A stretch of DNA of 64,000 nucleotides from Candidatus Saccharimonadota bacterium (lineage in GTDB: Bacteria; Patescibacteriota; Saccharimonadia; Saccharimonadales; JACDBH01), in contig JAQGGW010000008.1 of NCBI GenBank assembly GCA_028289135.1, positions 98,385 through 162,384 on the forward strand, written 5' to 3'. The position numbers and the translations under genes are program-made. Below are positions 3,302 to 58,644 of the stretch, piece after piece (the first letter of the stretch is position 1; every line of letters begins with the position of its first letter). The notes beneath the pieces are model-generated. The model saw nothing but the letters and a program-made list of their open reading frames with translations, made no database searches and was not told where the DNA came from.

Positions 3302-3973
3302 GTGCGTTTAATCGAACACTTTTTCAGCCTTTTAGCCCCTCACGACTGTATTAATTGCGGCCAAGAAGGTGCCCTTCTCTGTTCAGACTGTACTGTTAAA
3401 AAACTAGAACCCGTGCCTGGGCGGTGCTACAGGTGTTTTAGGCAGTCACTTAATTGTTCCACCTGCCCTGTTTGCCGCCATTATTCTGTACTCAAACACG
3501 TATGGGTACGCACGCAATATAACGAAACGGCGAAACAATTGGTGCACGAGCTTAAATTTAGCTTTGCCAAGGACGCCGCTCATAAAATAGCTAAAGAAAT
3601 ACAAACAACCCTTCCCTTACTTGCACCCGATACGATCATTGTACATATTCCCGCAGCCACTACACACGTCCGCCAGCGCGGTTTTGACCAGTCGGCCCTA
3701 ATTGCCCGCGAGCTTTCGTATTTAACTAGCCTCCCCCATATTCATGCTTTGAATAGGCTGGGCCAGCAACGCCAGGTCGGTGCAAGCGCTAAAACCCGTC
3801 AGCAACAGATGAAAAATGCCTTTCGTGCCGTTTCTAATCATGCGATTGAAGGTATGCAAGTGCTTTTGGTCGACGATGTATTAACAACTGGTTCGACCCT
3901 TGAAGCCGCTGCCCTAACCCTCCGGCGAGCAGGCGCAAAGTCAGTTTCGGCCGTTGTCTTTGCCCAGGCTTAG
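3302..3973 (+). CDS. comFC: ComF family protein (ComFC-like, PRTase fold)
   Basis: GTG start. N-terminal Cys-pair zinc-finger motifs (CINCG, CSDC, CYRC, CSTCPVC). C-terminal PRTase motif VLLVDDVLTTGSTL. Confidence 0.8.
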   Translation: MRLIEHFFSLLAPHDCINCGQEGALLCSDCTVKKLEPVPGRCYRCFRQSLNCSTCPVCRHYSVLKHVWVRTQYNETAKQLVHELKFSFAKDAAHKIAKEIQTTLPLLAPDTIIVHIPAATTHVRQRGFDQSALIARELSYLTSLPHIHALNRLGQQRQVGASAKTRQQQMKNAFRAVSNHAIEGMQVLLVDDVLTTGSTLEAAALTLRRAGAKSVSAVVFAQA

Positions 3974-3980
3974 TAAATAC

Positions 3981-4009
3981 TTCCATTAACAGAGATAAGC
4001 TGGTATAAT
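3981..4009 (+). promoter_or_regulatory. promoter of the tRNA-Ser pair
   Basis: TTCCAT (3981-3986), 17 nt, extended -10 TGgTATAAT (4001-4009), 27 nt before the tRNA. Confidence 0.55.
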
Positions 4010-4036
4010 TTCAATCTGTTACGCAATGTTTAATAC

Positions 4037-4129
4037 GGAGGGGTACCCAAGTGGCTCAAGGGGACGGTTTGCTAAATCGTTAGGGGGGAGAAATCTCCCG
4101 CGAGAGTTCGAATCTCTCCTCCTCCGCCA
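4037..4129 (+). tRNA. tRNA-Ser(GCU), class II, CCA encoded
   Basis: Acceptor GGAGGGG/CTCCTCC. Anticodon stem ACGGT/ATCGT with loop TTGCTAA (anticodon 4071-4073). Long variable arm. T-arm GAGAG-TTCGAAT-CTCTC. Ends GCCA. Confidence 0.9.
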
Positions 4130-4170
4130 TCCTTCGTCGCCAACCTTTTTAAAAGGTTAGCCACGGAGGA
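4130..4170 (+). other. imperfect 16-bp hairpin between the two tRNA-Ser genes
   Basis: TCCTTCGTCGCCAACC (4130-4145) pairs with GGTTAGCCACGGAGGA (4155-4170), with 2 mismatches and 1 G-U. Possible processing or spacer element. Confidence 0.35.
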
Positions 4171-4187
4171 TGTTTACAATCATATAC

Positions 4188-4275
4188 GGAAGGGTCGCAT
4201 AGTGGTCGAGTGCACCGGTCTTGAAAACCGGAGACCTGAGAGGGTCCGAGGGTTCGAATCCCTCCTCTTCCGCCA
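4188..4275 (+). tRNA. tRNA-Ser(UGA), class II, CCA encoded
   Basis: Acceptor GGAAGGG/CTCTTCC. Anticodon stem CCGGT/ACCGG with loop CTTGAAA (anticodon 4222-4224). Long variable arm. T-arm GAGGG-TTCGAAT-CCCTC. Confidence 0.9.
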
Positions 4276-4279
4276 ATCT

Positions 4280-4318
4280 AAAATAGCCATGCTGCAAAGT
4301 ATGGCTATTTTAGTTTGG
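4280..4318 (+). terminator. hairpin terminator after the tRNA-Ser pair
   Basis: AAAATAGCCAT (4280-4290), 10-nt loop, ATGGCTATTTT (4301-4311), then a T-rich tail. Confidence 0.65.
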
Positions 4319-4324
4319 TACAAA

Positions 4325-4346
4325 GGTCGAATCCCTCCTCTTCCGC
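4325..4346 (+). repeat. direct copy of the 3' end of tRNA-Ser(UGA)
   Basis: GGTCGAATCCCTCCTCTTCCGC matches tRNA positions 4251-4273 except for one deleted T. The 19 nt at 4328-4346 are identical to 4255-4273. Confidence 0.8.
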
Positions 4347-4371
4347 TCTTTATAATTTTCTTTTTGAAAAA

Positions 4372-4380
4372 TGCTACAAT
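4372..4380 (+). promoter_or_regulatory. extended -10 box abutting the ATG at 4387 (leaderless candidate)
   Basis: TGcTACAAT, with only 6 nt before the ATG and no RBS. Confidence 0.45.
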
Positions 4381-4386
4381 AAGCGT

Positions 4387-4989
4387 ATGCAAGAAGAGGG
4401 TAATCAGGAGCAACAGGCGCAGCCAGATGCAGGCTGGGTTTTTAAGCAAGGGCCTCAGCAGTCTTCCCCTTTAGCGTCTCAAACTTCCTCATCGGCCACG
4501 TTGCCGGGCGTATCCATGACTACATCACCAGAAGATGCTGTTACCTGGAGTGCTTCGGAGTATGTCGGCCACCCCAAGAACGCTGGCTGGTATCTTATGC
4601 TCGCCGGGGCAACAGCTTCCGTAGGTGTTATCGTCTACTTTTTAACGCGTGATGTTGTCTCCACTGTAGTCATCGCCATCTTAGGCATTGTCGTCGGAGT
4701 CTTTGCGGCCCGTCAGCCACAAGTAATGGAGTATGCCTTGGACAGGTCAGGTATCCACCTTGGTAGCCGATTTTATCCCTATAATGTCTTCAAGACCTTT
4801 TCGGTAGCCGAAGATGGTGCATTCAGCCACGTTACCCTCTTGCCGCTCAAGCGGTTTTTGCCCCCAATAACCGTGCATTACTCTCCTGACGACGAAGAAA
4901 AAATCATCAAAACCCTGGCCGACTATCTCCCGTTTGAAGAGCATAAAAACGACGTCATCGAAAACTTCAGCCGCCGCGTCCGTTTCTAA
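4387..4989 (+). CDS. membrane protein of unknown function (2 TM, PH-like C-terminal region)
   Basis: Start moved from track 4315 (which overlaps the tRNA copy and terminator) to the in-frame ATG at 4387 (MQEEGNQ...). Disordered N-terminus, two hydrophobic helices, soluble C-terminus. Confidence 0.6.
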   Translation: MQEEGNQEQQAQPDAGWVFKQGPQQSSPLASQTSSSATLPGVSMTTSPEDAVTWSASEYVGHPKNAGWYLMLAGATASVGVIVYFLTRDVVSTVVIAILGIVVGVFAARQPQVMEYALDRSGIHLGSRFYPYNVFKTFSVAEDGAFSHVTLLPLKRFLPPITVHYSPDDEEKIIKTLADYLPFEEHKNDVIENFSRRVRF

Positions 4990-5070
4990 ATTTTTGACAG
5001 GATTTGCATGATATATATTCCTAAAACCTTGCAAGCAAGTTTTAGGGTACCGCTGCGCTATTAAGGAAAA

Positions 5071-5150
5071 CATGAATAGCCGGCGGCTATTCATGCCTAC
5101 GACCTCCAGCTGGAGGTCGACAGTGTTCGAATCCAGCCAGAAACAAACCA
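5071..5150 (+). other. palindrome-rich segment containing tRNA-Arg-derived fragments (candidate small RNA or integration scar)
   Basis: 11-bp perfect hairpin CATGAATAGCC-GGC-GGCTATTCATG (5071-5095). 20-nt perfect palindrome CGACCTCCAGCTGGAGGTCG (5100-5119). CCTACGACCTCCAG (5096-5109) is identical to 5211-5224 inside tRNA-Arg. A GTTCGAATCC T-loop-like box is present. The strong terminator at 5153-5184 follows. Confidence 0.4.
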
Positions 5151-5152
5151 AG

Positions 5153-5184
5153 AAAAAAGTCCCACCGAAAGGTGGGACTTTTTT
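5153..5184. terminator. bidirectional rho-independent terminator
   Basis: AAAAAA-GTCCCACC-GAAA-GGTGGGAC-TTTTTT. Lies immediately 3' of tRNA-Arg (minus) and of the 5071-5150 segment (plus). Confidence 0.8.
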
Positions 5185-5186
5185 CT

Positions 5187-5263
5187 TGGTGTACCCGACA
5201 GGATTTGAACCTACGACCTCCAGTACCGCAAACTGGCGCTCTATCCAGCTGAGCTACGGGTAC
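5187..5263 (-). tRNA. tRNA-Arg(GCG), CCA encoded
   Basis: Minus strand reads GTACCCG-TA-GCTC-AGCTGGATA-GAGC-G-CCAGT-TTGCGGT-ACTGG-AGGTC-GTAGG-TTCAAAT-CCTGT-CGGGTAC-A-CCA. The D-loop resembles Arg tRNAs. Anticodon is the reverse complement of 5227-5229. Confidence 0.8.
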
Positions 5264-5346
5264 AAAACAGAGGTAATTTTAGCATCTTTCTCTAGTAAAG
5301 GCTAGTCCTAATGGTTAATCGTAAGGTATAATTGCCTCTGTCCCAA

Positions 5347-5436
5347 GGAAGGGTCGCATAGTCCGGTCTAGTGCGCCGCTCTCGAAAAGCGGTAAGGCGC
5401 AAGCCTTCGAGAGTTCGAATCTCTCCCCTTCCGCCA
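5347..5436 (+). tRNA. tRNA-Ser(CGA), class II, CCA encoded
   Basis: Acceptor GGAAGGG/CCCTTCC. Anticodon stem CCGCT/AGCGG with loop CTCGAAA (anticodon 5383-5385). Long variable arm. TATAAT at 5327-5332 upstream. Confidence 0.9.
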
Positions 5437-5472
5437 AACAAAAACGCTCTGCTTCAAAACAGAGTGTTTTTG
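5437..5472. terminator. hairpin terminator shared by tRNA-Ser(CGA) and the convergent 5474-6661 gene
   Basis: ACGCTCTG (5444-5451), 8-nt loop, CAGAGTGT (5460-5467), then TTTTT. An A-run lies on the other side. Confidence 0.65.
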
Positions 5473-5473
5473 G

Positions 5474-6661
5474 TTAAAGCTGGATCTTGCGCGGCGGCCG
5501 CGGCGGCCGTGGTGGGCGTTGTTGCTGCGGCACTGGCGGAGCGCTTGGGACTAATGGGCGTGGTTCAGCAGGGGTCAGGTCTCTTGCGGGTGGTACATTA
5601 TTACTCATAGGAGCCTCATGAACAACTGGGATGTCTTTGTGCCGGTGATGGCGTTTAATTAATACTGCAACGACTTTTACGATGACGCCAACCACAATAT
5701 ATGCAACGGTAAAGATAAGCAGATACCGCTCGACGTCCGTCAAGATTACCCGCACAAGATCAACGCCAAGCTTTTGATGTGAATCAAGCCCTCCCGGCAA
5801 GCTTGCGAGCCGTTTTGTACCCCAGTTAAAGAAGTAGCGTAACCCGGCATAGATAATGAGCAGCCCAAACCCAATAGTGAGGAAGATATTTCCAACCCGG
5901 TGCATTCCTTGCAAGCGTTTTTTACTCAAGAAAATAATGGCGAGGGATAATAAAAGCGTCGTAATGCCAAGCCCTATTGGCAAAAAGCCACCGAGCTTAT
6001 AAGCTTTTCGGGCCGCGACCAGTTTACTGTCGCTCGTAATCGGTATTTTCTTTCCGCTTTGAGAAACCATAATGTCACTACCAAGCACAACCGGTGTTTT
6101 AAAGAGTTTCTGCCCCGCAACGTAGTCATGTGCCATCGAAGCTACTTTGTCGGCGCTTACGCCAGCAGGTAAACAAGTAGCGGCCAATGGGTCGACCGGA
6201 CTGTTGCCATCCACTGCCCCGCACTTAGGCAGGCCGGCGGAACGGGTTTTGGCGTAAGCGGTTAAACCGTCCACTATCTGGGTTTTGATAGGGTTAAGGT
6301 CCAGCTTAAACATAAGATCTTGGTCCGAGCTGCCCAGCCACTGGTAGATGCTACCAATAAATGAATCTACCGAGTTTTTAACAAAATCACTCGAGAGTGC
6401 GTTTTTAACCACCGCCTTTACATTAGGGTCAGAAAAAGGCAGTCCCTCACCCCCGTCTTTTACGGTAGTTTTCTCTATATTTTCAAGCGCAATATCAGCC
6501 GCTTGCGAGTAAAAATTACTCCTATCCAGCCACCCAGTTACCGCCTGCCGGTTGCGTATAGTCGAGGCGCTAATATTGGTCCAAGCGAACCCAATCAAAA
6601 CCGTACCCAGCAATCCTCCTAAGAACCCTAGGAGCATTTTTCTCAAAACATTCATAAGCAT
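5474..6661 (-). CDS. multi-pass membrane protein with Pro-rich cytoplasmic tail, function unknown
   Basis: N-terminal TM, about 210-aa extracytoplasmic region, 3-4 further TM helices. Tail is PPVPQQQRPPRPPRPPRK. Confidence 0.6.
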   Translation of the reverse strand: MLMNVLRKMLLGFLGGLLGTVLIGFAWTNISASTIRNRQAVTGWLDRSNFYSQAADIALENIEKTTVKDGGEGLPFSDPNVKAVVKNALSSDFVKNSVDSFIGSIYQWLGSSDQDLMFKLDLNPIKTQIVDGLTAYAKTRSAGLPKCGAVDGNSPVDPLAATCLPAGVSADKVASMAHDYVAGQKLFKTPVVLGSDIMVSQSGKKIPITSDSKLVAARKAYKLGGFLPIGLGITTLLLSLAIIFLSKKRLQGMHRVGNIFLTIGFGLLIIYAGLRYFFNWGTKRLASLPGGLDSHQKLGVDLVRVILTDVERYLLIFTVAYIVVGVIVKVVAVLIKRHHRHKDIPVVHEAPMSNNVPPARDLTPAEPRPLVPSAPPVPQQQRPPRPPRPPRKIQL

Positions 6662-10943: not shown

Positions 10944-11192
10944 AAGGCCAGTATACAGGATGTTATTAACAGTTAACAGGGGTAAATTAGGTTTCTATCT
11001 GCCCTGCTATCTTAAAGAGATTTTTCACATGAAACAAAAAAATACTAGGCCGCAATCACCTTCACGTGAAACCGGTTGTTGTATTTATTACCGAATTTAC
11101 CACCACTCTTCTCCGAGATCCCTACCGAAGAAAGACGTTTTGTTTGATGTACTACCGCTGTTAACGGCCCTAAACTTTTTGTTTTCATACTA

Positions 11193-11221
11193 AGCATAAG
11201 CCTAACTTTCACGGCATGCAA
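11193..11221 (-). promoter_or_regulatory. candidate valS promoter (implies a leader of about 240 nt)
   Basis: Minus strand reads TTGCAT (11221-11216), 17 nt, TATGCT (11198-11193). Confidence 0.4.
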
Positions 11222-11223
11222 GA

Positions 11224-11252
11224 TTGACAAAGCATAAGAATAATGCTATTAT
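11224..11252 (+). promoter_or_regulatory. consensus sigma70-like promoter
   Basis: TTGACA (11224-11229), exactly 17 nt, TATTAT (11247-11252). ATGs at 11256 and 11259. Confidence 0.6.
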
Positions 11253-12648: not shown

Positions 12649-12677
12649 TTGCGTTTATGTCATGCTTATGCTATTAT
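12649..12677 (+). promoter_or_regulatory. sigma70-like promoter
   Basis: TTGCGT (12649-12654), 17 nt, TATTAT (12672-12677). ATG at 12686. Confidence 0.45.
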
Positions 12678-12685
12678 ATATAATT

Positions 12686-13234
12686 ATGCCAGGGAATATG
12701 TACTCCAACCCTAATCCAGAGCAATTGTCTTCGAATGGCTTTGCAAAAGCTATTCTTACGCGGGCAGAAATGCAGCTTAGACGTGCTTCAGAGAAGTTGA
12801 TGACTCCTGAAGAATATAATGAACACCCAAGCGTGGTGCATGTATTTTATCTTGTGACGAATACCGATGCGCCTAGGGATCCTCTTTTAGTAGATGAGCG
12901 TACTTATGAGACTCATCAGTTAAGATTTCTTGGCAGGGTCGTACGTGAGATTACCTTTTCTAAAGACGAAGGTGATATTTCTTTTAGCGTACAGATGCAA
13001 AAAGATGCCGATTGCGAAGTGGGGCCAGGTGAGCGAATTCCAAGAGACATAGAGCTTTCGAGCAATCCGGACGGTGTGTTTATTAATTACGCACCCGTTG
13101 AACTGGCACTTGCTATGGAAGAGCGGCCAATTTTAGTTATGGATGAAATGTTTCCGCAAACACCAAAAGAGGGCAATATTTTGGAACGGCTTAGCCTGAT
13201 AATGGATGAAATCGAACTAGCCAAGGTGATATAG
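12686..13234 (+). CDS. hypothetical protein (orphan, AT-rich)
   Basis: The track ORF starts at 12662, inside the promoter. I prefer the in-frame ATG at 12686 (or 12698). No recognisable motifs. Confidence 0.5.
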   Translation: MPGNMYSNPNPEQLSSNGFAKAILTRAEMQLRRASEKLMTPEEYNEHPSVVHVFYLVTNTDAPRDPLLVDERTYETHQLRFLGRVVREITFSKDEGDISFSVQMQKDADCEVGPGERIPRDIELSSNPDGVFINYAPVELALAMEERPILVMDEMFPQTPKEGNILERLSLIMDEIELAKVI

Positions 13235-13287: not shown

Positions 13288-14646
13288 ATGAGTTCAGTCA
13301 GAAGCCTCATTAAGAAGGTCGTTCCATCCAAGTTATTCCGTGATATTGAGCCATATGGGCACTTGCTTGAGGCCATGGCCGAAGAAGCGGCCGCCGGTTT
13401 TCCGGCCAAAAATATGAAAGTGATCGGCGTAACAGGGACGGACGGCAAAACCAGCACGTGCACGCTTATTAGCGCCATGCTGCGGAACGCGGGCTACAAA
13501 GTGGCTATGATGACGACAATTTCTATCGATTACGGCGACGGCGTTTTGCACGACAATCCAACCCGTCTTACTTCTTTGGGTTCGGCCCAGCTTATCAAGC
13601 GTTTAAAGCAAATTAAGGCCAAAAACCCCGATTGGCTGGTGCTTGAAACAACTTCTCACGCTCTTGCTCAGCACCGTGTCTGGGGCGTGCCATACAGCAT
13701 TGGTGTTATGACAAACGTCGGGCACGAACATCTGGATTACCACCGGACGTTTGAGCGCTACCGTGACGCCAAAAAGATGCTTTTTAAGCACGTGAATTCC
13801 AACAAAAAGGGCCTGCGGGTTGGGATCGCTAATGCCGATGATCCAAGCGGTGCTTTGTTTGCGGCTGCCGTAAAAAACCCGGTTTTATATGGGGTGGATA
13901 AGGGTGATCTTAAGGCTATAGATATTAAACCAACTCCAAGCGGGTCAACTTACATAGCAACTATTGGTAGCGAAACGTTCAACATTACTTGCCATCTGCC
14001 AGGGTCATTTAATGTCTATAACTCCTTGGCTTGCGTGGCCGTAGGGCGGGCAATTGGCCTCAGTAAAGAGCAAATAGAGCAGGGGATAGCGAGCCTAAAC
14101 AGCGTAGAAGGCCGCATGACACGCGTTGACGAAGGCCAGGATTTTGACGTTATTGTCGACTACGCCCACACGCCCGAAAGCTTCGAAAAAGTTATTAAAG
14201 AAGTCCGCCCACTGGTAAAGGGCCGGATTATCACGGTGTTTGGATCAGCTGGCCGCAGGGACATCGAAAAGCGCGCCGCCCAAGGCGAAGTTGCCGGCCG
14301 TTTAGGCGATATTGTTATTCCAACAGAGGAAGATGACCGTGATATTGATGGCAATGAAATCCTGGAACAAATAGCCAGCGGAGCTGAAAAAGCCGGCAAG
14401 GTAAAAGGTAAAGACTTATTTTTGATTCTAAAGCGTGAAGAAGCGATTGAAAAGGCGGTTAGCCTCGCCCAAAAGGGCGATATGATCCTGCTGCTAGGCA
14501 AAGGCCACGAAAAATCTATCTTATATAACGGGCCAAAAGCTACTGAATACCGCAGCCGTCCGCAAGACGACACTGACCCTGAGCGGGTGCTAAAACGTGA
14601 CTATGATGAAGTATCTTCCGTAAGCGCGATTCTAAAGAAAAAATAG
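13288..14646 (+). CDS. murE: Mur ligase, MurE-like (UDP-MurNAc-L-Ala-D-Glu:diamino-acid ligase) with short N-terminal domain
   Basis: P-loop VIGVTGTDGKTST. MurE-type VDYAHTPESFEKV. C-terminal GSAGRRDIEKR. The P-loop begins near residue 45, so domain 1 is shortened. Confidence 0.8.
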   Translation: MSSVRSLIKKVVPSKLFRDIEPYGHLLEAMAEEAAAGFPAKNMKVIGVTGTDGKTSTCTLISAMLRNAGYKVAMMTTISIDYGDGVLHDNPTRLTSLGSAQLIKRLKQIKAKNPDWLVLETTSHALAQHRVWGVPYSIGVMTNVGHEHLDYHRTFERYRDAKKMLFKHVNSNKKGLRVGIANADDPSGALFAAAVKNPVLYGVDKGDLKAIDIKPTPSGSTYIATIGSETFNITCHLPGSFNVYNSLACVAVGRAIGLSKEQIEQGIASLNSVEGRMTRVDEGQDFDVIVDYAHTPESFEKVIKEVRPLVKGRIITVFGSAGRRDIEKRAAQGEVAGRLGDIVIPTEEDDRDIDGNEILEQIASGAEKAGKVKGKDLFLILKREEAIEKAVSLAQKGDMILLLGKGHEKSILYNGPKATEYRSRPQDDTDPERVLKRDYDEVSSVSAILKKK

Positions 14647-14690
14647 TTATCCACCGTTCTCAGCTCGACAGATTGACAAGCCATAAGCTT
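14590..14690 (+). repeat. copy 1 of a 101-nt duplicated segment (murE 3' end + promoter box)
   Basis: Aligns without gaps to 15949-16049, with 19 mismatches by my manual count. The last 46 nt have 2 mismatches. Contains TTGACA at 14673-14678. Confidence 0.85.
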
Positions 14691-14745
14691 TTAACGTAGT
14701 GTGGCCTTATAAAGTAATTAAAAAATAACAGATTAGGATAAAACT

Positions 14746-15939
14746 ATGGACGAATCAAAAGGAACCTCATATTCAGTACCTGGCTCAGTGTCTGCAAGCC
14801 ACTTCTTCACGCTAATGCGTGCGGATGGCGACCCTGCTGTCTATATGCTCAACAACCGCGGCGAGCGGTTTCACGTAACCGAAGCTTTAAGTAACGAAAT
14901 GAAGGCTGGCGGCACTTGGTATGACCCAACACCCACAACTGCAGCCGACCTAAATTCACACCCACTCCGCTATGAAGTCAATACGCTGCATAATGTTGAA
15001 AGTATAAATAACCTGCCAATCGCGGCCAATTATATGCTTATTCGAGGTAATGGCGGTCCGTTGGATAACAATACTTTAATTGGCAATGGAAACGCAGTCT
15101 ATGCGGTTGATACGAATGGCAATAAATTTCACGTTACAGAATCTGCCTTCAACGAATTAACAAATGAAAACGGCGGTACACCGCCTGCTGTGGGCATTAT
15201 TGATCAAAGTTCAGTTGACTCAACACCAGTTAGCGGCGCATTAGCTGTTAACCCAGCTGGCGGTGTTCAAACAACAACCGACCAGATTATGGACCAGGCT
15301 CTCGCTTCGGCTATGAATGTTTTGGGTGGCGGTTCAAGCCAGCCTGCATCTGGCGCAACCACTACAGCCACGGGTTATGGCGTTACCTACTCTGTCCCTG
15401 GGCCAACTTCTCCGGACTACGACAGCGACACGTACTCAGTCCCAGGCGGACCAGTATATGACGACTCATATTCAGTTCCTGGAGGACCAGTATATGATGA
15501 CTCGTATTCCGTCCCAACACCATCAGGCTCATATTCTGTCCCAGACCCTAACGACCAAACCACATTGCCAACCACCACACAGGTTGCAGCCGACCCCAGC
15601 AACCCAGACCCAGGAAGCGTCGTCTATACGGACGGACCGTTTGCAGGCTACACCGTAGACCAAGTTAAAGCCTTTACAGACGGCGTTAATGCTGGAGGAA
15701 GCTTTAGCGATAGCGGGCAAGCTGCCGCGGCTTCTGCTAGCGCCGCTCCAACCGCTTCGGCAGTACCAGACCCCGGAAGCGTTGTTTATACAGATGGTCC
15801 GTTTGCAGGCTATACCGTAGACCAAGTCAAAGCCTTTTCTGACGGCGTAAACGCTGGCGGTAGCTTTATCAGCGGTGACTCTTCCTCTGGCATCCCAGCT
15901 GGTGCTCCTCCGATGCCAGGCTACACTAACCCTCAATAA
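14746..15939 (+). CDS. repeat-containing protein of unknown function, paralog A (no signal peptide)
   Basis: AGGAT RBS. Shares a module of about 200 aa (SHFFTLMRADGDPAVYMLNNRGERFHVT...) with paralog B. Has YSVPG repeats and two copies of DPGSVVYTDGPFAGYTVDQVKAF.DGVNAGGSF. Ends PPMPGYTNPQ. Confidence 0.75.
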   Translation: MDESKGTSYSVPGSVSASHFFTLMRADGDPAVYMLNNRGERFHVTEALSNEMKAGGTWYDPTPTTAADLNSHPLRYEVNTLHNVESINNLPIAANYMLIRGNGGPLDNNTLIGNGNAVYAVDTNGNKFHVTESAFNELTNENGGTPPAVGIIDQSSVDSTPVSGALAVNPAGGVQTTTDQIMDQALASAMNVLGGGSSQPASGATTTATGYGVTYSVPGPTSPDYDSDTYSVPGGPVYDDSYSVPGGPVYDDSYSVPTPSGSYSVPDPNDQTTLPTTTQVAADPSNPDPGSVVYTDGPFAGYTVDQVKAFTDGVNAGGSFSDSGQAAAASASAAPTASAVPDPGSVVYTDGPFAGYTVDQVKAFSDGVNAGGSFISGDSSSGIPAGAPPMPGYTNPQ

Positions 15940-15945
15940 ACATTA

Positions 15946-16002
15946 GCCCTAAAGCGTGACTATGACGAAATTAAAGCCATCAAAGCAGTTCTAAAGAAGT
16001 AA
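15946..16002 (+). pseudogene. relic of the murE C-terminus carried by the duplication
   Basis: Reads ALKRDYDEIKAIKAVLKK-stop, compared with the MurE C-terminus VLKRDYDEVSSVSAILKKK-stop. No upstream coding context. Confidence 0.6.
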
Positions 16003-16049
16003 AAGTTATCCACCGTTCTCAGCTTCACAGATTGACAAGCCATAAGCTT
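15949..16049 (+). repeat. copy 2 of the 101-nt duplicated segment
   Basis: See 14590-14690. Contains TTGACA at 16032-16037, followed by TACTGT 17 nt later. Confidence 0.85.
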
Positions 16050-16108
16050 ATTGCTACTGTTGCCTTATAGCAAATAAAAACAAAAATTAAAAAGTTAGGA
16101 ATAGAAAT

Positions 16109-18103
16109 ATGGCACTTTACCCTCTCTCATACGTAAAAAAAGAGATAGCTTCTATGCTCCAGCAAATCGGGCCACAAATTACGGACGATGTAGAAGGCAA
16201 AGACTATCCAAATGGCCTTGGCTCTCCTCAGGAGAGAAGTAATTATACGCAGTCGATGATAAAAAGGGTTAACTCTGCTACATCGGTATCGCAATTGGTC
16301 GGATTCATAAATGGGTTCAATACCGGCGATAAAAAACAGTTGATTGCACTGGCACAAAGTAAAGATACCTGGGCGGATCAGTTTAGTGGAAAGCCAATAA
16401 TCCCATTACCAGCAACTACACTTGCTCCAGCTTCGCAAACTCGTGATGAACATTCAGTTTTTAGTGGATCACCAGCTTCCGCAGCAAGCACTACACCATC
16501 AAACCAGAGTAATGGAGTCACTAGTAATATACCTACACAACCAGACCCTGGACGAATAGCGACTAAAGTTGCGGACTCTATTAACTGGCATGGGCTGTTT
16601 GGTGCATACCAAGATGAATCCCCGCAAGTTATGATGGACCAGTTGTGGAGTAATTATCAGGAATCTGCTAAAGGGGATTTCAGTGGTGCGGAAAGGCAAG
16701 GCTTCCGAGACAGTATTAACGAATTTGTAACTAAACTTAAGAGCAAAGGTATAACTGTAACGCACCCACCTTTCGCAGGGTTTGATACCGGCAAAGACCA
16801 TGACCAGCCCGTCTGGAGTCCAGCTGGCACTACGTCGACACCGGTACCATCTACAAATGACCGTGATCACGATCAAGTCACGTGGTCGGGTTCTGGTGCT
16901 GCTACACCCGCAGCTAACCCGGATAGTAACCCCGATGGAATTGGGAATACCCCGGGCGGTTCCCTTACAGTAGAGCCTCCAGCAACTTCACCAGAAATTG
17001 CTGCGGCAATCGATGAAGCAAATAAGCAGTTAGCAGCTGCTGGAATTACCGCGACTATTACGGATCCTACCTCTGTTCAAAATGTCCGTGACCAGTTATT
17101 CCTACAAATTACGGCAGCTAAAAACGCGGGCGGTACGGCAGACTATGCTGGCGCGCTGAGCAACTGGGATAGTGCTTTGTACTCAAAAGGAATTAGCTTT
17201 GTCCAAAACCATAAAATCAAAAATCCAAAGCCTCCCGTCATTGCCCCGCCCGTCACAACCGTAGATACGGCGACGGCCGCCGCGGCTGGTGCTGCCGCAA
17301 CTCCAGCCGTAACACCATCCGCCTCCGCCCCTGCCAGCCACTTCTTCACCCTCATGCAGGCAGACGGTGACCCAGCTGTATATATGCTTAACAACCGCGG
17401 TGAACGGTTCCATGTTACTCCCAACCTAAAAAACGAAATGATTGCTGGCGGTACATGGTACGATCCACCGCTAACAACTGCAGCCGACCTAAATTCACAC
17501 CCACTCCGCTATGAAGTTAATACGCTTCATAATGTTGAGAGTATTAACAATCCACCAATTGCTGGAAATTTCATGCTAATTAGAGGCTCAGGCGGCGCCG
17601 AAACCGATAACAGTAAGCTTATTGGCAACAGCAATGCTGTCTATGCAGTTGATACTAACGGCAAGAAGTTCCATGTTACAGAATCGGCATATAATGAACT
17701 AGTAAATGAAAGCGGCGGTACGCCGCCGGCTGTTGGCATTGTTGATCAAAGTTCGGTTGATGCCACACCAGTTAGCGGCGCGCTTGCTGTTAACCCTGCT
17801 GGCGGAGTTCAAACAACAACCGACCAGATTATGGACCAGGCTCTTGCTTCGGCTATGAATGTCTTAGGCGGCAGTCCAAGTACAGATAGTGGACAAGCTG
17901 CTGCTAGCGCCGCACCTGCCGCTGCAGCTGTACCCGACCCAGGAAGCGTCGTCTATACAGACGGTCCATTTGCAGGCTACACCGTAGACCAAGTTAAAAC
18001 CTTTAGCGCCGGAGTAAATGCTGGCGGAAGCTTTAGTAGCGGTGACTCCTCTGGAATTCCAGCTGGTGTTCCACCAATGCCAGGCTATACCAATCCTCAG
18101 TAA
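16109..18103 (+). CDS. repeat-containing protein of unknown function, paralog B (no signal peptide)
   Basis: Unique N-terminus of about 390 aa rich in Ser/Thr/Pro/Ala. Then the shared SHFFTLMQADGDP... module and one DPGSVVYTDGPFAGYTVDQVKTF copy. Ends PPMPGYTNPQ, as in paralog A. Confidence 0.75.
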   Translation: MALYPLSYVKKEIASMLQQIGPQITDDVEGKDYPNGLGSPQERSNYTQSMIKRVNSATSVSQLVGFINGFNTGDKKQLIALAQSKDTWADQFSGKPIIPLPATTLAPASQTRDEHSVFSGSPASAASTTPSNQSNGVTSNIPTQPDPGRIATKVADSINWHGLFGAYQDESPQVMMDQLWSNYQESAKGDFSGAERQGFRDSINEFVTKLKSKGITVTHPPFAGFDTGKDHDQPVWSPAGTTSTPVPSTNDRDHDQVTWSGSGAATPAANPDSNPDGIGNTPGGSLTVEPPATSPEIAAAIDEANKQLAAAGITATITDPTSVQNVRDQLFLQITAAKNAGGTADYAGALSNWDSALYSKGISFVQNHKIKNPKPPVIAPPVTTVDTATAAAAGAAATPAVTPSASAPASHFFTLMQADGDPAVYMLNNRGERFHVTPNLKNEMIAGGTWYDPPLTTAADLNSHPLRYEVNTLHNVESINNPPIAGNFMLIRGSGGAETDNSKLIGNSNAVYAVDTNGKKFHVTESAYNELVNESGGTPPAVGIVDQSSVDATPVSGALAVNPAGGVQTTTDQIMDQALASAMNVLGGSPSTDSGQAAASAAPAAAAVPDPGSVVYTDGPFAGYTVDQVKTFSAGVNAGGSFSSGDSSGIPAGVPPMPGYTNPQ

Positions 18104-18109
18104 AAATTT

Positions 18110-18982
18110 CTAATCCGCAAATAAACGCCGGCAGGTTTCTTGGAAGTAGCTTAAGAATTTTATATATTCATGGCTTCCGTTGTATTCGTATGCTACAAAT
18201 TCTAGCGCCAGATTGCCTTTAAGGCCTTGCAGGTGCGCTTTTGCAAAAAGTTTTACAAGAATATCAAAGCCTTGTTTGGCGCTTTCTTTATCGGACAGCG
18301 GCTGCCTGCTTCTTACCTGCATAATGCCCGTGCTTACGCCTCTCTTGGGGTGGGATGATATATAACGCCGCTCTGCCCAGCGGACAGCGCGCGGCCGTGC
18401 GACATCCTCTACGACCATAAAACTCAGCAACAGAGGCCGTAGGGCCGTAGGGTAGTTAGTGAATAGCTTCTCGTAGGTGGCTTTTAATCTTTTAGCTCGT
18501 TTTTCTGCCCAGGACACATAATGTTTATCGTACTTTCTAGTTCGGTATTTCTCCGCAAACAACAACAGTGAAAGTCCAAACACAACTACAAAAACGCGTA
18601 AGGGCAGGGCAAGAAACGGTGCGTAACAGGGCAACACAATTCCTGCCAGGAAAGTTTTAATAATCAGCTCCGACCGTTCCATTACGAACATCATAAACAC
18701 ATAGCAAAGATAAAGGGTTGTTACAGTAGCCGCAAACAAAACCAAATAAGAGCTAGGAACTTTAGCGCCAAGCAAAAGATTGTATGCAGCCAAAGCAATT
18801 ACTACGGTATTAGCAGAGGTCAGCCGGTCTTTAAATGGGAAAAAGTCAGTCACTTTTCCTGGCTCTAAATGGTGTTTTTTAAGGAGTATAAACGAACACA
18901 GGGTTGCTATAATCAATCCTGTAATAACGCCCAGTCCAATCAAGAATATAAGGTGGTCCAAGTACCTATGAGTATACTTCAA
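18110..18982 (-). CDS. multi-pass membrane protein with a C-terminal lytic-transglycosylase-like region (tentative)
   Basis: About 5 TM helices, then VVEDVARP...GIMQVRS...AYEYNGS, which resembles the SLT motifs E-S / GLMQ / AYNxG. Start is a TTG (18982 or 18961) and is uncertain. Confidence 0.45.
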   Translation of the reverse strand: MKYTHRYLDHLIFLIGLGVITGLIIATLCSFILLKKHHLEPGKVTDFFPFKDRLTSANTVVIALAAYNLLLGAKVPSSYLVLFAATVTTLYLCYVFMMFVMERSELIIKTFLAGIVLPCYAPFLALPLRVFVVVFGLSLLLFAEKYRTRKYDKHYVSWAEKRAKRLKATYEKLFTNYPTALRPLLLSFMVVEDVARPRAVRWAERRYISSHPKRGVSTGIMQVRSRQPLSDKESAKQGFDILVKLFAKAHLQGLKGNLALEFVAYEYNGSHEYIKFLSYFQETCRRLFAD

Positions 18983-19795
18983 CCAAAGCTTAAGAGTAAT
19001 AAAATTACTGGCTCTGACGTGCTCTTAAATAACTGGGACGTCGGCTACAAAGTAACGGACGAATCGGGCAAGCTTATCCGCTCCAAAAATCCGCATAAGA
19101 GCTACGAAAGCTCAAGCACGCTTAAGACTGCCCTAATGCATCTGTTCTTGAATAAAGTCAGCCAAAATGAGCTTGGTCTAGACCACGTATTCAGCATTAA
19201 AGACAGCCAGCGCTCAAACGGCTCGGGGATTGTTAACTGGACAGACTGGAACTCCTTGCCGTTGCATGCCGTGATTGAGCTAACGTGCGTTTATAGCGAC
19301 TGCACCACAACCAATATGATAATCGACTACCTTGGCGGCCAACAGATGGTTAACGAGCTTTTTAAGAATAGTGGCTATAAATATACCAAGCTAAACCAAC
19401 CGAGCCTGATGTTTGACGAATCAAAGCCCCGGATGGAAAGCGTTGGCACAACCACTCCGGATGAAGCTTCAAAGTGGTTACGTATGCTGCTTGAAGATTT
19501 TTCGATTAGTCCTGAAATTAAACAGCACTTTATAACCAGTACCCAGTCAATCCATACGCCATGGCTGGATTTGGGCGCGGAACACCACCCTCTTATTAAA
19601 ACTGGGTCGATGATAGACATTGGGCCGGCAGGCACCAGTGTTTTTAACGCCAACGGTCGCGTAAGCACAGGCAAGGGGTTATTATTCTTTGCCTTCTTTT
19701 CCAGGGGCGATTTAAGGGGCCAAGCAGTCTATGCACCCGAGGAAGCCAAGCGCCTTATCTCCAAATATATCCAAGATACCGTATTAAAAATCTAG
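18968..19795 (+). CDS. class A beta-lactamase-like serine hydrolase (no signal peptide)
   Basis: Start moved to the ATG at 18968. Contains SxxK (SSTLK), an SDN-like motif (YSDC) and KTG (IKTGS). Confidence 0.6.
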   Translation: MSILQPKLKSNKITGSDVLLNNWDVGYKVTDESGKLIRSKNPHKSYESSSTLKTALMHLFLNKVSQNELGLDHVFSIKDSQRSNGSGIVNWTDWNSLPLHAVIELTCVYSDCTTTNMIIDYLGGQQMVNELFKNSGYKYTKLNQPSLMFDESKPRMESVGTTTPDEASKWLRMLLEDFSISPEIKQHFITSTQSIHTPWLDLGAEHHPLIKTGSMIDIGPAGTSVFNANGRVSTGKGLLFFAFFSRGDLRGQAVYAPEEAKRLISKYIQDTVLKI

Positions 19796-19801
19796 CGCAC
19801 C

Positions 19802-21892
19802 TTAGTGCAGCCGTATCTCGACTTCGCCGTCTTCGTTCACAATCGGAACATTAAGAGTTGAGACGGGCATATTGATGGGTTTTGCCTGGGCTTCTTCTTG
19901 CTTATGGGCTGCCAAATAAGTCATAAACTTATCCATGGCCAAGCGGTCGACGTTTAATTTGTCTAGCTCCATGTCTTTTTTGGCCTTTTCCTGGTCGATT
20001 CCTTCAAGCACGCCCAGGTAGTAGTCCAGGCCGCCAAGTTCTTTGACGTCTTTTAGCGTACCGCTGTCGAGCACATAAATTGTATCCATAAGGCTCAAAA
20101 GGGCTTTACGGTGGGTTACCATGACGGTTGTCTTGCCCTGGATCATTTTGCTAAGTGAGTCGCGTATATAGTTCTCGCTTTTTACGTCCAGAGCCGCTGT
20201 GGGCTCGTCTAAGCAAAGTATTGGCGCGTTCTTGATAAGTGAGCGGGCAATGGCAATACGTTGCTTCTGGCCGCCGCTGAGGCTAGAGCCGTTCTCGCCA
20301 GCGGGTGATGTTATGCCAAGGGGCAGTTTAAGGGCAAACTCTGCGACGTTTGAGACAAAAACGGCATTAGAGATCTCTTCGTTCGAAATTGACCGGTATG
20401 GGTCGCCGTCTAGTAGGTTGTCCAAAATTGTGCCGCTAAACAGCTGCGGGTTCTGGCTGACCCAGGCAATCCGCTGCCGCAACTCTTTTAGTGACACCGA
20501 TTGGATGTCGATGCCGTCCATCAAAATCCGGCCGCTGGCAGGCTCAATAAACAGGGCAATAAGCTTTAAAATAGTACTTTTGCCGGCGCCGCTCGGCCCG
20601 ATGATGCCAATCTTTTCACCTTGGTTAATGTGCAGGTTTAAGTTTTGGAAAATAACCTGGTGGTTGTACGAATAAGAAACGTTCTGGAAGTCCAAGATAC
20701 CGCGGATGGTTGGCGGAATGTGGTTGTCTTTGCGCAAATCCTCTACTCCTTCATGGTCGCTCAAAACTTCGTAGATTCGGTTAACATCTATCAGCTTTTG
20801 GTTGCGTGAGGTAATCTGTTTTACCAGGTTTTCGATCGGCCCAAGCAAATAGCCCATGTAGGTCATAAATATCAACAGCTGCCCAAAGGTCATCTTGCCC
20901 TGCAGCGCAGCGGTGCCGCCAAAGTACATCACCGTCGATGTCGCCAAAATAGTCAAAAATCCATTGGTATTACTAAGCAGGTTGCCCCAAAGCATGCTTC
21001 TTTTTGTTAAAAAATAGCCTCTTTGCCACAGCTTGTCGACGTTTGCCAGCTGCTTGTCCTCAAGGGTATAGGCCTGGACGGTCTCGGCGTTGTCGATCGA
21101 CTCGTTAATGCGCGATGACGTCTCAGAAGCGACTTCTGTCAGCGCCCGTGAATATTTGCCCATTTTAGGCCCAAAAATACGCATTGTCAGGTACAGCAGC
21201 GGCATCAGCACAACAGAGACAAGAGTCAGTTTTGGGTTAAATTTAAGCATAATAATCAGCACCCCGATAATCATCAAAATTGAGCCGATTATCGAGGAAG
21301 TCGTCCCAAGTACCAGGTCCGAAAGGCTGTTCGTGACGACGTTTTGCCGGTAAACATAGTCGCCCTTGGCCAGCCGCTCCTGGTGGAACAGCGGCAGGTG
21401 CAAAATGTGCCGGAGCGACTCAATCTTAATACTGCGGTTTAGCCAAAAGCCCACTTTAAGGAGTAAAAACGAGCTAAAAAAGTCAAAAGTCGAGCCAATA
21501 ATAAACAGCCCAATCGTCATAAGGGAAGTAAGGAGGATCAGGGTAGGGGTGTGCGTATAAGGGGCAAGCGGACCCGGGGCGGGGATCCTGCCAAAAGCGG
21601 AGTCGGCCAAGATCTTAGTCGGCCACGGCTTCATAAGCGCAACGCCGGCTTGGATGGTACCAATAAACACCACCAGCACAACTGCGCCGCGGGCTTTTTT
21701 GCGGTAGCGGGCAACCCAGTCCTTAAAAGCGGTGGTTTTGGTTTGGCGGCCGTAGGTCTTTAGCCAGGCTTCAAGCGCCTGCCTGACAAGTTCGGGCGGC
21801 CACCCCTGGCGCACCAATGCGTCGCCAATTAAATTAACAGGTACGCCGTTCGCTACTGCCTGTTCAATAGCGTCGTACAGTTTAGGCATCAT
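19802..21892 (-). CDS. ABC exporter, fused permease/ATPase (MsbA-like) with N- and C-terminal extensions
   Basis: 6-TM domain. Walker A GPSGAGKST, signature LSGGQKQRIAIARSL, Walker B ILCLDEPTAALD. About 90 extra C-terminal residues. Confidence 0.88.
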   Translation of the reverse strand: MMPKLYDAIEQAVANGVPVNLIGDALVRQGWPPELVRQALEAWLKTYGRQTKTTAFKDWVARYRKKARGAVVLVVFIGTIQAGVALMKPWPTKILADSAFGRIPAPGPLAPYTHTPTLILLTSLMTIGLFIIGSTFDFFSSFLLLKVGFWLNRSIKIESLRHILHLPLFHQERLAKGDYVYRQNVVTNSLSDLVLGTTSSIIGSILMIIGVLIIMLKFNPKLTLVSVVLMPLLYLTMRIFGPKMGKYSRALTEVASETSSRINESIDNAETVQAYTLEDKQLANVDKLWQRGYFLTKRSMLWGNLLSNTNGFLTILATSTVMYFGGTAALQGKMTFGQLLIFMTYMGYLLGPIENLVKQITSRNQKLIDVNRIYEVLSDHEGVEDLRKDNHIPPTIRGILDFQNVSYSYNHQVIFQNLNLHINQGEKIGIIGPSGAGKSTILKLIALFIEPASGRILMDGIDIQSVSLKELRQRIAWVSQNPQLFSGTILDNLLDGDPYRSISNEEISNAVFVSNVAEFALKLPLGITSPAGENGSSLSGGQKQRIAIARSLIKNAPILCLDEPTAALDVKSENYIRDSLSKMIQGKTTVMVTHRKALLSLMDTIYVLDSGTLKDVKELGGLDYYLGVLEGIDQEKAKKDMELDKLNVDRLAMDKFMTYLAAHKQEEAQAKPINMPVSTLNVPIVNEDGEVEIRLH

Positions 21893-32652: not shown

Positions 32653-32742
32653 GGAGAGGTCGCATAGTGGCCTAGTGCGCCGCCTTGGAAAGGCGGTAAG
32701 CCCGCAAGGGTTTCGGGGGTTCAAATCCCCCCCTCTCCGCCA
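32653..32742 (+). tRNA. tRNA-Ser(GGA), class II, CCA encoded
   Basis: Acceptor GGAGAGG/CCTCTCC. Anticodon stem CCGCC/GGCGG with loop TTGGAAA (anticodon 32687-32689). Long variable arm. T-arm GGGGG-TTCAAAT-CCCCC. TATAAT at 32625-32630. Confidence 0.9.
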
Positions 32743-56460: not shown

Positions 56461-57027
56461 ATGATTAAAGCCATAATTTTTGACTGTTTTGGCGTTGTTT
56501 TGGTTGATGCTTTTGACGCGGCCTACGAGAAGTTTGGCGGGGACGTGGCAAAAGACCATGATTTTATTGTGCAGACGTTTTATGAGTCGCACACCGGCGG
56601 AGCGTTTTCGGGTGATGTTTTAGCAAAACATTTAGGCATTGACCCTAAAGAGTGGAAAGAGACGATTAACGAAGGCAGCACGCTTAACCAAAATGTTTTG
56701 GATTATGTAGGTGAGCTGCGCACAAAATACAAAACAGGTATGCTGTCGAATGTTGGGGGAGGTAGGTTGCCGGAAATGTTTGAGCCAGGGGTTTTGGAAA
56801 AATACTTTGATGCAGTTGTTGGTTCGGGCGACATTGGCTATGCCAAACCAGAGCCAGAAGCTTACGAAATTACCGCCGATTTGCTTGGCGTACGTCTAGA
56901 CGAATGCGTATTTATCGACGACAGGCAGCATTATGTTGACGGCGCTAAAGCCGTTGGCATGCAGGGGATTTTATATACATCTTTAAGCCAGTTAAAAAGT
57001 GATTTAGAAGTGTTATTAAAGAAGTAA
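56461..57027 (+). CDS. HAD-like hydrolase, paralog 1 (non-canonical motif I)
   Basis: MIKAIIFDCFGVV (D then C-F, so no second Asp), SN motif II, KPEPEAY, VFIDDRQHYVDGAKAVG. Confidence 0.7.
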   Translation: MIKAIIFDCFGVVLVDAFDAAYEKFGGDVAKDHDFIVQTFYESHTGGAFSGDVLAKHLGIDPKEWKETINEGSTLNQNVLDYVGELRTKYKTGMLSNVGGGRLPEMFEPGVLEKYFDAVVGSGDIGYAKPEPEAYEITADLLGVRLDECVFIDDRQHYVDGAKAVGMQGILYTSLSQLKSDLEVLLKK

Positions 57028-58236: not shown

Positions 58237-58644
58237 ATGGATGAAATGAAGAAGTTTTATGTTGGGGTGAAGGGCATAATTGTAGATGCCGAAAAAGGGG
58301 CGCTTTTGCTGCGGCATAACAATGGTTTTTGGAATACGCCTGGCGGACGGATTAACGGCGACGAAAGCATTGATCAGACACTTATAAGGGAACTCAACGA
58401 AGAGCTACCAGGTATCCAGAATATAGAAAAAGGTAAGCTCCTGGATGCATGCCGGATACACAAAGATATTGTTCCTGACACAAGCTTGGTGCTTGTCTAT
58501 TTTTTGGTTACTGCCAAGCTGCCAGAACCGCTTAAAATTAGCGACGAACACGTAAGCTTTTTGTGGGTAAAAACCCGGGCTGATATCCCAGAAGATCTAG
58601 AAGAGCAAGTGGTTAAGATATTTAAAGATATTTTGCCCGCATGA
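58237..58644 (+). CDS. NUDIX hydrolase
   Basis: Nudix box GGRINGDESIDQTLIRELNEELPG. Confidence 0.85.
   Translation: MDEMKKFYVGVKGIIVDAEKGALLLRHNNGFWNTPGGRINGDESIDQTLIRELNEELPGIQNIEKGKLLDACRIHKDIVPDTSLVLVYFLVTAKLPEPLKISDEHVSFLWVKTRADIPEDLEEQVVKIFKDILPA

Follow-up and report, generated by a model that had tools for sequence, protein, structure and literature searches.

Probable tandem duplication of the murE 3′ end, a predicted promoter and the adjoining gene in a Saccharibacteria contig

The stretch of DNA analysed here (hereafter the window) comprises 64 kb of a metagenome-assembled contig (JAQGGW010000008.1, assembly GCA_028289135.1), assigned to the Saccharibacteria by comparison of murE orthologues and by the NCBI names. 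In this window, the Mur ligase gene murE is followed on the same strand by two paralogous genes, here called A and B, and a second, gene-less copy of the murE 3′ end lies between them. This arrangement probably arose by tandem duplication of a unit made up of the end of murE, a predicted promoter and a gene, followed by later remodelling. The original prediction, made from the sequence alone, had proposed a duplicated unit starting inside murE, a proposal now supported by the colinear layout, the sharp ends of the homology, the occurrence of a single copy in relatives, and the finding that A and B are each other's nearest relatives. The coordinates of the features are collected in Table 1.

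The segments 14590–14690 and 15949–16049 are 101 nucleotides (nt) each and align without gaps. An exact recount gave 19 mismatches, identical to the number first reported, with 17 in positions 1–55 and two, adjacent to each other (CG/TC), in positions 56–101, so that the described split between a diverged first 55 nt and a well-kept last 46 nt was also reproduced. A repeat search of the window recovered the same pair at 81% identity. The BLASTN self-search of the window aligned 14590–14749 with 15949–16112 (76% over 165 columns, E = 4.5e-24), and gapped homology extended through the 5′ untranslated region (5′UTR) and the ribosome-binding site (RBS) to both ATG start codons; the similarity is thus far beyond chance and reaches further than had been seen at first. 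In a global alignment of the 5′UTRs of A and B, 42 matches, 11 mismatches and 8 gap columns were obtained, which beat 500 of 500 shuffles. The mismatches in the murE tail were clustered, with 12 within 19 nt (14611–14629) and only 2 of 21 in 14590–14610. The two halves of the promoter block (a 20-mer and a 23-mer) were present only at the two sites in the 64 kb, compared to 0.00–0.01 expected.

Upstream of 14590 and 15949, no similarity between the copies was found, and at the 3′ end the homology stopped at 15944 and 18108, 5 nt past both stop codons, the homology being sharply bounded on both outer sides. The units 14590–15948 and 15949–18108 are adjacent, on the same strand and colinear head to tail, and each contains, in this order, the murE tail, the promoter block, the 5′UTR with the RBS, the start codon, the shared domain and the stop codon. 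At the new junction, the 3′ flank of one unit abuts the 5′ end of the next. The sequence CTAA occurs at 14590, 15949 and 18110, though it is only 4 nt long and offset by 1–4 nt from the end of the homology. Because the contig belongs to a metagenome-assembled genome, an assembly artefact was weighed together with chance similarity, and either is extremely improbable. The BLASTN E value argues against chance. A collapsed or expanded repeat would give identical copies, whereas the present copies are 19% diverged and both genes show a ratio of nonsynonymous to synonymous substitution rates (dN/dS) of 0.08, and the junction between A and the murE fragment (15940–15949) contains no repeat able to cause a false join.

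MurE of the window matches the Pfam domains Mur_ligase_M (5e-44) and Mur_ligase_C (4e-28) and shows 87% amino acid (aa) identity to Saccharibacteria orthologues (loci L001, L002 and L082). Translation of the orphan copy (15949–16002) gives LKRDYDEIKAIKAVLKK-stop, compared to LKRDYDEVSSVSAILKKK-stop in MurE, and no ATG, GTG or TTG start was found upstream of it. The MurE C-terminal motif [LIV]KRDYDE[VI]..A...LKK is conserved across dozens of Saccharibacteria genomes, and KRDYDE[VI], which the remnant carries, was found at the MurE C-terminus in 46 of 80 Saccharibacteria murE loci. As this conserved motif is present, the orphan copy is a real murE 3′ fragment, in agreement with its earlier description as a MurE tail with no gene attached. 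Related loci numbering 91 were compared, the first 80 being species-representative Saccharibacteria murE loci, and among them a second murE-tail motif of the form KR.YDE[VI] was found in the window only. The remnant shares the reading frame of A, downstream of the TAA stop codon of A. A read-through extension of A into the in-frame remnant was considered and found no support, a shared frame having a one-in-three chance. An antisense ORF (open reading frame) of 27 codons across the block and the tail in both copies (14684→14601 and 16043→15960) was likewise rejected, as it is frame-shifted in L082 and shows many non-synonymous differences.

Neither a homologue of A or B nor the promoter block was found in the 80 species-representative murE loci, and a word-indexed protein search matched only A and B themselves. 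A HMMER search of 1.84 billion representative proteins returned 22 further family members, all via the shared domain (24 representatives in total), and a metagenome scan with the family alignment added two new loci, neither with murE. The informative loci came from the HMMER representative search and contig look-ups. Synteny with the 87%-identical loci L001 and L002 breaks right after murE and resumes at position 24019 of the window. In the syntenic locus L082, tsaD and murE are followed by one 668-aa gene (P0004) and a convergent ATP-binding cassette (ABC) exporter gene, with MurE and the ABC protein 86.5% and 88.9% identical in amino acids, respectively, to those of the window, and in the syntenic locus L084, murE is followed by a small ORF, one 619-aa gene (P0006) and an ABC exporter gene. 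Because the family gene is single in both L082 and L084, the ancestral state of the locus was one long gene, and the window gained a copy. In L083, L085, L090 and L091, a family gene stands next to a convergent ABC exporter gene; murE is not adjacent in L083, L090 and L091, and the region upstream in L085 is cut by the contig end. Locus L081 contains murE, four family ORFs and the ABC exporter gene, with its own internal repeats. As it holds no murE-tail remnant, its breakpoints differ from those of the window. The region 2757–8070 of L081 is a tandem expansion of its own downstream of murE, with internal 212-nt repeats at 83% identity and the four ORFs, two of which (3905–4585 and 4640–5953) appear to be a single gene interrupted by a frameshift or an assembly error.

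The common parts of A and B are a domain of approximately 190 aa and a C-terminal module, and their main block shows 81% nucleotide and 85% amino acid identity. No Pfam or NCBIfam domain match was found for either protein. Among the 1.84 billion representative proteins, A and B are the nearest relatives of each other (85% aa identity, with the next best at 45–48%), and both relate about equally to P0004. Over 236 aligned codons, the proportion of synonymous differences (pS) was 0.545, with dS of approximately 0.97, dN of 0.078 and dN/dS of 0.08, and 46 of 114 4-fold degenerate sites (40%) differed. This low dN/dS indicates that A and B are real genes under purifying selection. B has approximately 406 extra N-terminal codons (16113–17330) compared to 14 codons in A, and the shared repeat resumes at 14792 in A and 17331 in B. 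Residues 6–111 of B align to the N-terminus of the single-copy orthologue P0004, and residues 405–664 are common with A, so that B keeps the ancestral form and A is derived and shortened. A, the short copy without the ancestral N-terminal region, carries extra YSVPG linker repeats (approximately 0.35 kb) and a second PDPGSVVY...GGSF module. When the shared domain (14785–15339 versus 17324–17881) was compared with P0003, P0004, P0006 or P0007 as the outgroup, 6–10 amino acid changes were assigned to B and 1–4 to A; B, the copy with the ancestral architecture, has thus evolved faster here. Structure prediction of the shared domain gave a confident core, with a predicted local distance difference test score (pLDDT) above 85 for residues 10–170, and comparison of the predicted structure with the PDB gave no usable match, the best being EccB1 (E = 2e-3, template modelling score 0.19).

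The 4-fold sites of murE differ by 51%, 55% and 65% between the window and L082, L002 and L001, respectively, compared to 40% between A and B. As the divergence of A and B is lower, the duplication is younger than the splits of the window from L082, L002 and L001, and is lineage-specific.

The two murE tails have not changed to the same extent. Compared with the murE tail of L082, the remnant is identical at 39 of 54 nt, which is close to the gene-wide 78%, and the resident tail at 31 of 54. The core of the resident tail is nearer to L001 (13/21) than to L082 (7/21), and along murE, similarity to L082 is lowest in the final 90-nt segment (0.63). When the tail changes were polarised with L082 as the outgroup, 11 fell on the live murE copy and 4 on the dead copy; with a vote of L082, L001 and L002, the numbers were 8 and 5, respectively. 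Most of the tail differences thus appear to lie on the live copy rather than on the dead one, although the numbers are small (approximately 15 sites, P about 0.06–0.1) and the tail is too short for decisive dating against orthologues. The dead copy has the look of a fossil that preserves the ancestral tail, the live tail being the one that has moved. Like gene-fragment pseudogenes at duplication boundaries, it is a murE 3′ fragment without a start or gene body that lies between paralogues and marks the left breakpoint. It differs from them in that it is still an in-frame, consensus-like MurE tail, apparently less changed than the live copy.

This pattern of the tails, together with the structural difference between A and B, would also fit a history of homology-facilitated illegitimate recombination, in which DNA from a related strain, carrying a murE 3′ end, a promoter and an A-type gene, recombined homologously inside murE on the left and was joined illegitimately on the right at the equivalent of 14590, so that B, with the native tail and promoter, was pushed downstream. 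Saccharibacteria carry DNA-uptake machinery, which also counts for such an addition of an allele. We nevertheless consider it quite unlikely, as no other known protein comes anywhere near the similarity between A and B, which stand at about the same distance from P0004, and as the donor would need a 96%-identical promoter block next to a tail and a gene diverged by 20–30%. No donor-like sequence was found among the 91 loci or in protein databases, and the asymmetry of the tails involves the same 15 or so sites (P about 0.06–0.1).

Direct repeats that include a gene 3′ end and flank a 1.2-kb insert might also be read as attL and attR of a small element that targeted the murE 3′ end and brought a replacement tail. 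Such integration is almost certainly not what happened, and it is effectively refuted by the content of the insert, in which no integrase, transposase, Pfam or NCBIfam domain was found and gene A alone lies between the repeats. This cargo is a paralogue of B, which lies just outside the repeats. Furthermore, the homology does not end with the repeat but takes in the UTR, the start codon, the shared domain and the stop codon, and the repeats are 19% diverged. Tandem duplication of the end of murE with the promoter and gene is the favoured origin of the two units.

The TTGACA box, which had been read as part of a promoter, forms the arrangement TTGACA-N18-TAGTGT in copy 1 and TTGACA-N17-TACTGT in copy 2, and the sequence elements of the spacers include GTTATCCAC, TTGACA and AGCCATAAG. 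A stricter consensus scan (at least 4/6 per hexamer) did not call these promoters, as the −10 matches reach only 3/6. In the alignment, TTGACA, 16–18 nt and TAnnnT recurred upstream of the family genes in five further loci (L081, L082, L084, L090 and L091), and thus upstream of every family member examined, which is consistent with the promoter reading; the −10 hexamers are TATATT in L082, TATCTT in L081 and TACTGT, the same as that of B, in L084. In L084, L090 and L091, the arrangement is conserved although the neighbouring gene is not murE, which assigns the predicted promoter to the family gene. The spacer of L082 keeps GTTATCCAC (9/9) directly after the murE stop codon and TTGACAAGnCATAAG (14/15), and TTGACAAGgCATAAG is also retained there, with the 4-fold sites 51% different. 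On the basis of these sequence patterns, promoter activity is predicted for both copies. In the intergenic regions murE–A and A–B, no terminator was predicted. The block resembles sigma-70-type promoters in its perfect −35 TTGACA, its spacer of 17–18 nt, its TAnnnT −10 and its conserved position upstream of orthologues, and differs from them in its weak −10 hexamers (TAGTGT and TACTGT), in an unusually conserved extension after the −35 hexamer (TTGACAAGCCATAAG) and in the conserved GTTATCCAC 18 nt upstream.

Two other roles for the block were considered. A structured RNA (riboswitch or leader) found no support, as the Rfam search of the block gave no relevant match at E ≤ 1 and fold z-scores ranged from −0.08 to +1.9 on both strands. 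GTTATCCAC agrees at 8 of 9 positions with TTATCCACA, the DnaA-box consensus of Escherichia coli, an agreement used as a lead only. The DnaA-box-like sequence TTATCCAC occurs 4 times in the window compared to 1.7 expected, with 6 of 100 shuffles reaching 4, so that a DnaA box is not significant by count, and it is kept in L082 and not in L081 or L084. A third extended −35 site lies on the forward strand at 11224–11252 (TTGACAAAGCATAAG, 17 nt, TATTAT), in the 600 nt that separate a valS-like gene from tsaD, as part of a conserved spacer (11022–11251). The pattern TTGACA-N16-18-TANNNT occurs at only three sites in the window, namely those of A, B and 11224. Approximately 230 nt around the third site are 81% identical to L001, above the neighbouring genes, and neither an Rfam match nor a conserved ORF was found there; the region 11022–11251 may be an unannotated small RNA or a regulatory region.

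The mismatch frequency in the murE tail (17/55) was not different from the neutral level given by the 4-fold sites of A and B (46/114, p = 0.31), whereas that in the promoter block (2/46) was far below it (Fisher p = 2e-6) and also below that in the tail (p = 7e-4). The original prediction that the non-coding part had been kept better than the dead coding part was thus borne out as far as the contrast itself is concerned, but most of the tail changes apparently occurred on the live copy. The near-identity of the block is partly due to selection, as GTTATCCAC and TTGACAAGnCATAAG are kept in L082. It is not attributable to selection alone, because identical coding stretches are also found in A and B, of 44 nt (14935–14978/17474–17517) and 38 nt (15265–15302/17807–17844; the B coordinates of both runs were calculated from alignment offsets). 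These runs include all synonymous sites and are longer than those in codon shuffles (p = 0.009 for the longest and 0.001 for the top two), which points to patchy gene conversion between A and B. Furthermore, of the approximately 21 positions of the block that lack conservation in L082, 19 still match between the two copies (P = 0.002 for an assumed identity of 60%). Besides selection on the core motifs, short gene-conversion patches have probably helped to keep the two blocks nearly identical.

The same observations would also fit a block whose near-identity came mainly from a recent short gene-conversion tract and not from purifying selection on the promoter, though this is somewhat unlikely. 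GTTATCCAC and TTGACAAGnCATAAG are kept in L082 at 9/9 and 14/15 positions despite the 51% difference at 4-fold sites, the −35 hexamer and its spacing to TAnnnT are kept in all five further loci, and the tract would be only approximately 60 nt long, ending just before the −10 hexamer. As the core motifs are kept across loci, selection acts on the core of the block whatever conversion adds. The mosaic of exact runs (44, 38, 23 and 20 nt) in 19%-diverged copies resembles concerted evolution or gene conversion of tandem paralogues, but only two sequences are involved here, and conversion alone does not account for the conservation of the block core in other species.

Taking the tandem duplication as the origin of the two units, we infer as follows how it took place, in what order the later events followed, and how much selection and conversion each contributed. 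The ancestral order was probably murE, a strong sigma-70-type promoter, one long B-like gene and the convergent ABC exporter gene. A tandem duplication of approximately 2.2 kb, from 57 nt before the end of murE to approximately 5 nt past the stop codon of the B-like gene, would then have occurred, probably via illegitimate or microhomology-mediated recombination, with CTAA at all three boundaries. The upstream copy would have stayed fused to murE, which was thus left intact, and the downstream copy would have left the orphan tail before the second promoter and gene. With a promoter, UTR and RBS inside the unit, the two genes could have been expressed at once, and both were retained (dN/dS 0.08). 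A probably later lost the 1.2-kb N-terminal region in frame, followed by expansion of the linker repeats in A. The orphan tail would have drifted at an approximately neutral rate, and the promoter core, comprising the −35 hexamer with its flanks and the upstream GTTATCCAC, would have been held by purifying selection, with conversion patches probably added.

Several points weigh against this history. The CTAA match fits microhomology-mediated tandem duplication, but at 4 nt it is weak evidence. The greater change of the live tail compared to the dead tail is not predicted by plain duplication with neutral decay, though this again involves small numbers (P about 0.06–0.1). A and B are unequal, and their 1.2-kb 5′ difference and the extra 0.35 kb in A mean that at least two further events after the duplication are needed. 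In addition, B shares only approximately 44% aa identity with P0004, though MurE and the ABC exporter share 87–89% with their counterparts, which does not fit a constant dN/dS of 0.08; the low identity points to bursts of fast evolution, to replacement of the gene, or to conversion that homogenised A and B.

Tandem duplication by illegitimate or microhomology-mediated recombination is known in bacteria (e.g. PMC8639346, PMC11111574, bioRxiv 10.64898/2026.02.28.708716). The window shares with such duplications the head-to-tail copies, the new junction of 3′ flank and 5′ end, the possible CTAA microhomology and a unit with its own promoter (predicted here), from which both copies would be expressed. 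Laboratory and clinical duplications are recent, identical and unstable, whereas that of the window is old (dS of approximately 1), fixed and diverged. It also differs in having been remodelled by the loss of 1.2 kb in one copy and in that its mechanism is suggested by a 4-nt match only. The scar in the window is thus a well-preserved, old and fixed tandem duplication, a fresh example of a known process and not a new kind, and the current understanding of gene duplication is unchanged. It offers a clean natural record of gene gain in a reduced, host-dependent bacterium, in which the breakpoint inside the essential murE shows where the duplicated unit begins on the left, the copied promoter, as predicted, would explain possible expression of the new copy from the start, and the dead murE fragment provides an internal clock independent of the genes themselves.

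Homologues of the shared domain of A and B lie tail to tail with a fused permease–ATPase ABC exporter gene in 7/7 recovered contigs (L081–L085, L090 and L091), whether or not murE is nearby. The family proteins consist of repeated modules of approximately 90 aa (..GNG.AVYAV...G.KFHVT..), and the murE-linked subclade has a conserved C-terminal GD.SG.P.G.PP..GY..P(H/Q) motif; inspection by eye, the only check made, revealed no apparent signal peptide at the N-termini. The gene order suggests that the family protein and the ABC exporter may form a cargo–exporter pair. The family is rare (24 of the 1.84 billion representatives) and fast-evolving, as seen in the approximately 44% aa identity of B and P0004 against 87–89% for the flanking genes, its repeat domain is not annotated in Pfam or NCBIfam, its promoter is better conserved than its coding sequence, and independent expansions are seen in at least two genomes (the window and L081). 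It is conceivable, though on balance unlikely, that the block is the control region of an undescribed Saccharibacteria module comprising a fast-evolving repeat protein and a dedicated convergent ABC exporter, the protein being exported via a C-terminal signal and having a role at the host or cell surface. If so, the repeated duplications and the conservation of the promoter would reflect diversifying selection on the cargo under fixed regulation, and the extended motif TTGACAARSCATAAG, also found at 11224, could mark a small regulon.

Table 1. Features of the murE–ABC exporter region, with positions in the window
Feature	Position	Strand	Description
murE	13288..14646	+	452 aa, intact; UDP-N-acetylmuramoyl-tripeptide synthetase type Mur ligase
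murE tail, copy 1	14590..14646	+	Last 18 codons and stop, inside the live gene; left end of duplication unit 1
Conserved 45-nt promoter block, copy 1	14646..14690	+	GTTATCCAC ... ACAGA TTGACA AGCCATAAGCTT; 43/45 positions as in copy 2
Putative sigma-70-type promoter of A	14673..14702	+	−35 TTGACA (14673–14678), 18-nt spacer, −10 TAGTGT (14697–14702); pattern match
5′UTR of A with AGGA ribosome-binding site	14691..14745	+	Homologous to the 5′UTR of B, with 4 indels
Paralogue A	14746..15939	+	397 aa; NCBI: hypothetical protein JWO47_1010
Duplication junction	15940..15948	+	3′ flank of unit 1, ACATT (homologous to AAATT after B), and AGCC, then the murE-tail copy
Dead murE 3′ fragment	15949..16002	+	17 codons and TAA; without start codon or upstream gene body
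Conserved 45-nt promoter block, copy 2	16005..16049	+	
Putative promoter of B	16032..16060	+	−35 TTGACA (16032–16037), 17-nt spacer, −10 TACTGT (16055–16060)
Paralogue B	16109..18103	+	664 aa; NCBI: hypothetical protein JWO47_1011
B-specific N-terminal coding region	16113..17330	+	Approximately 1.2 kb; A has 42 nt instead (14750–14791)
Right end of duplication unit 2	18104..18109	+	Homology to the sequence after the A stop codon ends at 18108
ABC exporter, fused permease and ATPase	19802..21892	−	Single, not duplicated; a conserved neighbour, in convergent orientation, of the A/B family in every relative

Between B and the ABC exporter gene (18110–19795), a 290-aa predicted membrane protein (− strand) and a class-A-beta-lactamase-like gene (+ strand, Beta-lactamase2, 1e-23) are encoded; the called ORFs overlap by approximately 110 nt and are absent from the syntenic L081, L082 and L084. 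On the other side of murE, a 190-aa ORF without a Pfam match (12662–13234) lies between tsaD and murE, with one weak tblastn match elsewhere (L049); the same two genes are 44 nt apart in L082.

Elsewhere in the window, small paralogous proteins are encoded at 331–855 and 1445–1930, with a signal-like N-terminus, a Cys-rich middle and a common C-terminal transmembrane segment (..NTILYA.IG.V..), and the repeats 1075–1217, 1796–1906 and 2173–2315 (72–73% nucleotide identity) mark further copies in this small-protein cluster. Four tRNA-Ser genes (GCT, TGA, CGA and GGA) and one tRNA-Arg gene are located in 4037–5436 and 32653–32742; three of the tRNA-Ser genes are clustered with the tRNA-Arg gene, and the tRNA genes account for several internal nucleotide repeats of the window. 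Two ORFs of 188 and 196 aa, 2.2 kb apart, share their first 35 nt (56461–56495 and 58641–58675, 97% identical, MIKAIIFDCFG...) and are diverged thereafter; they may be paralogous haloacid dehalogenase (HAD)-type hydrolases or may carry a small conversion patch at the start.

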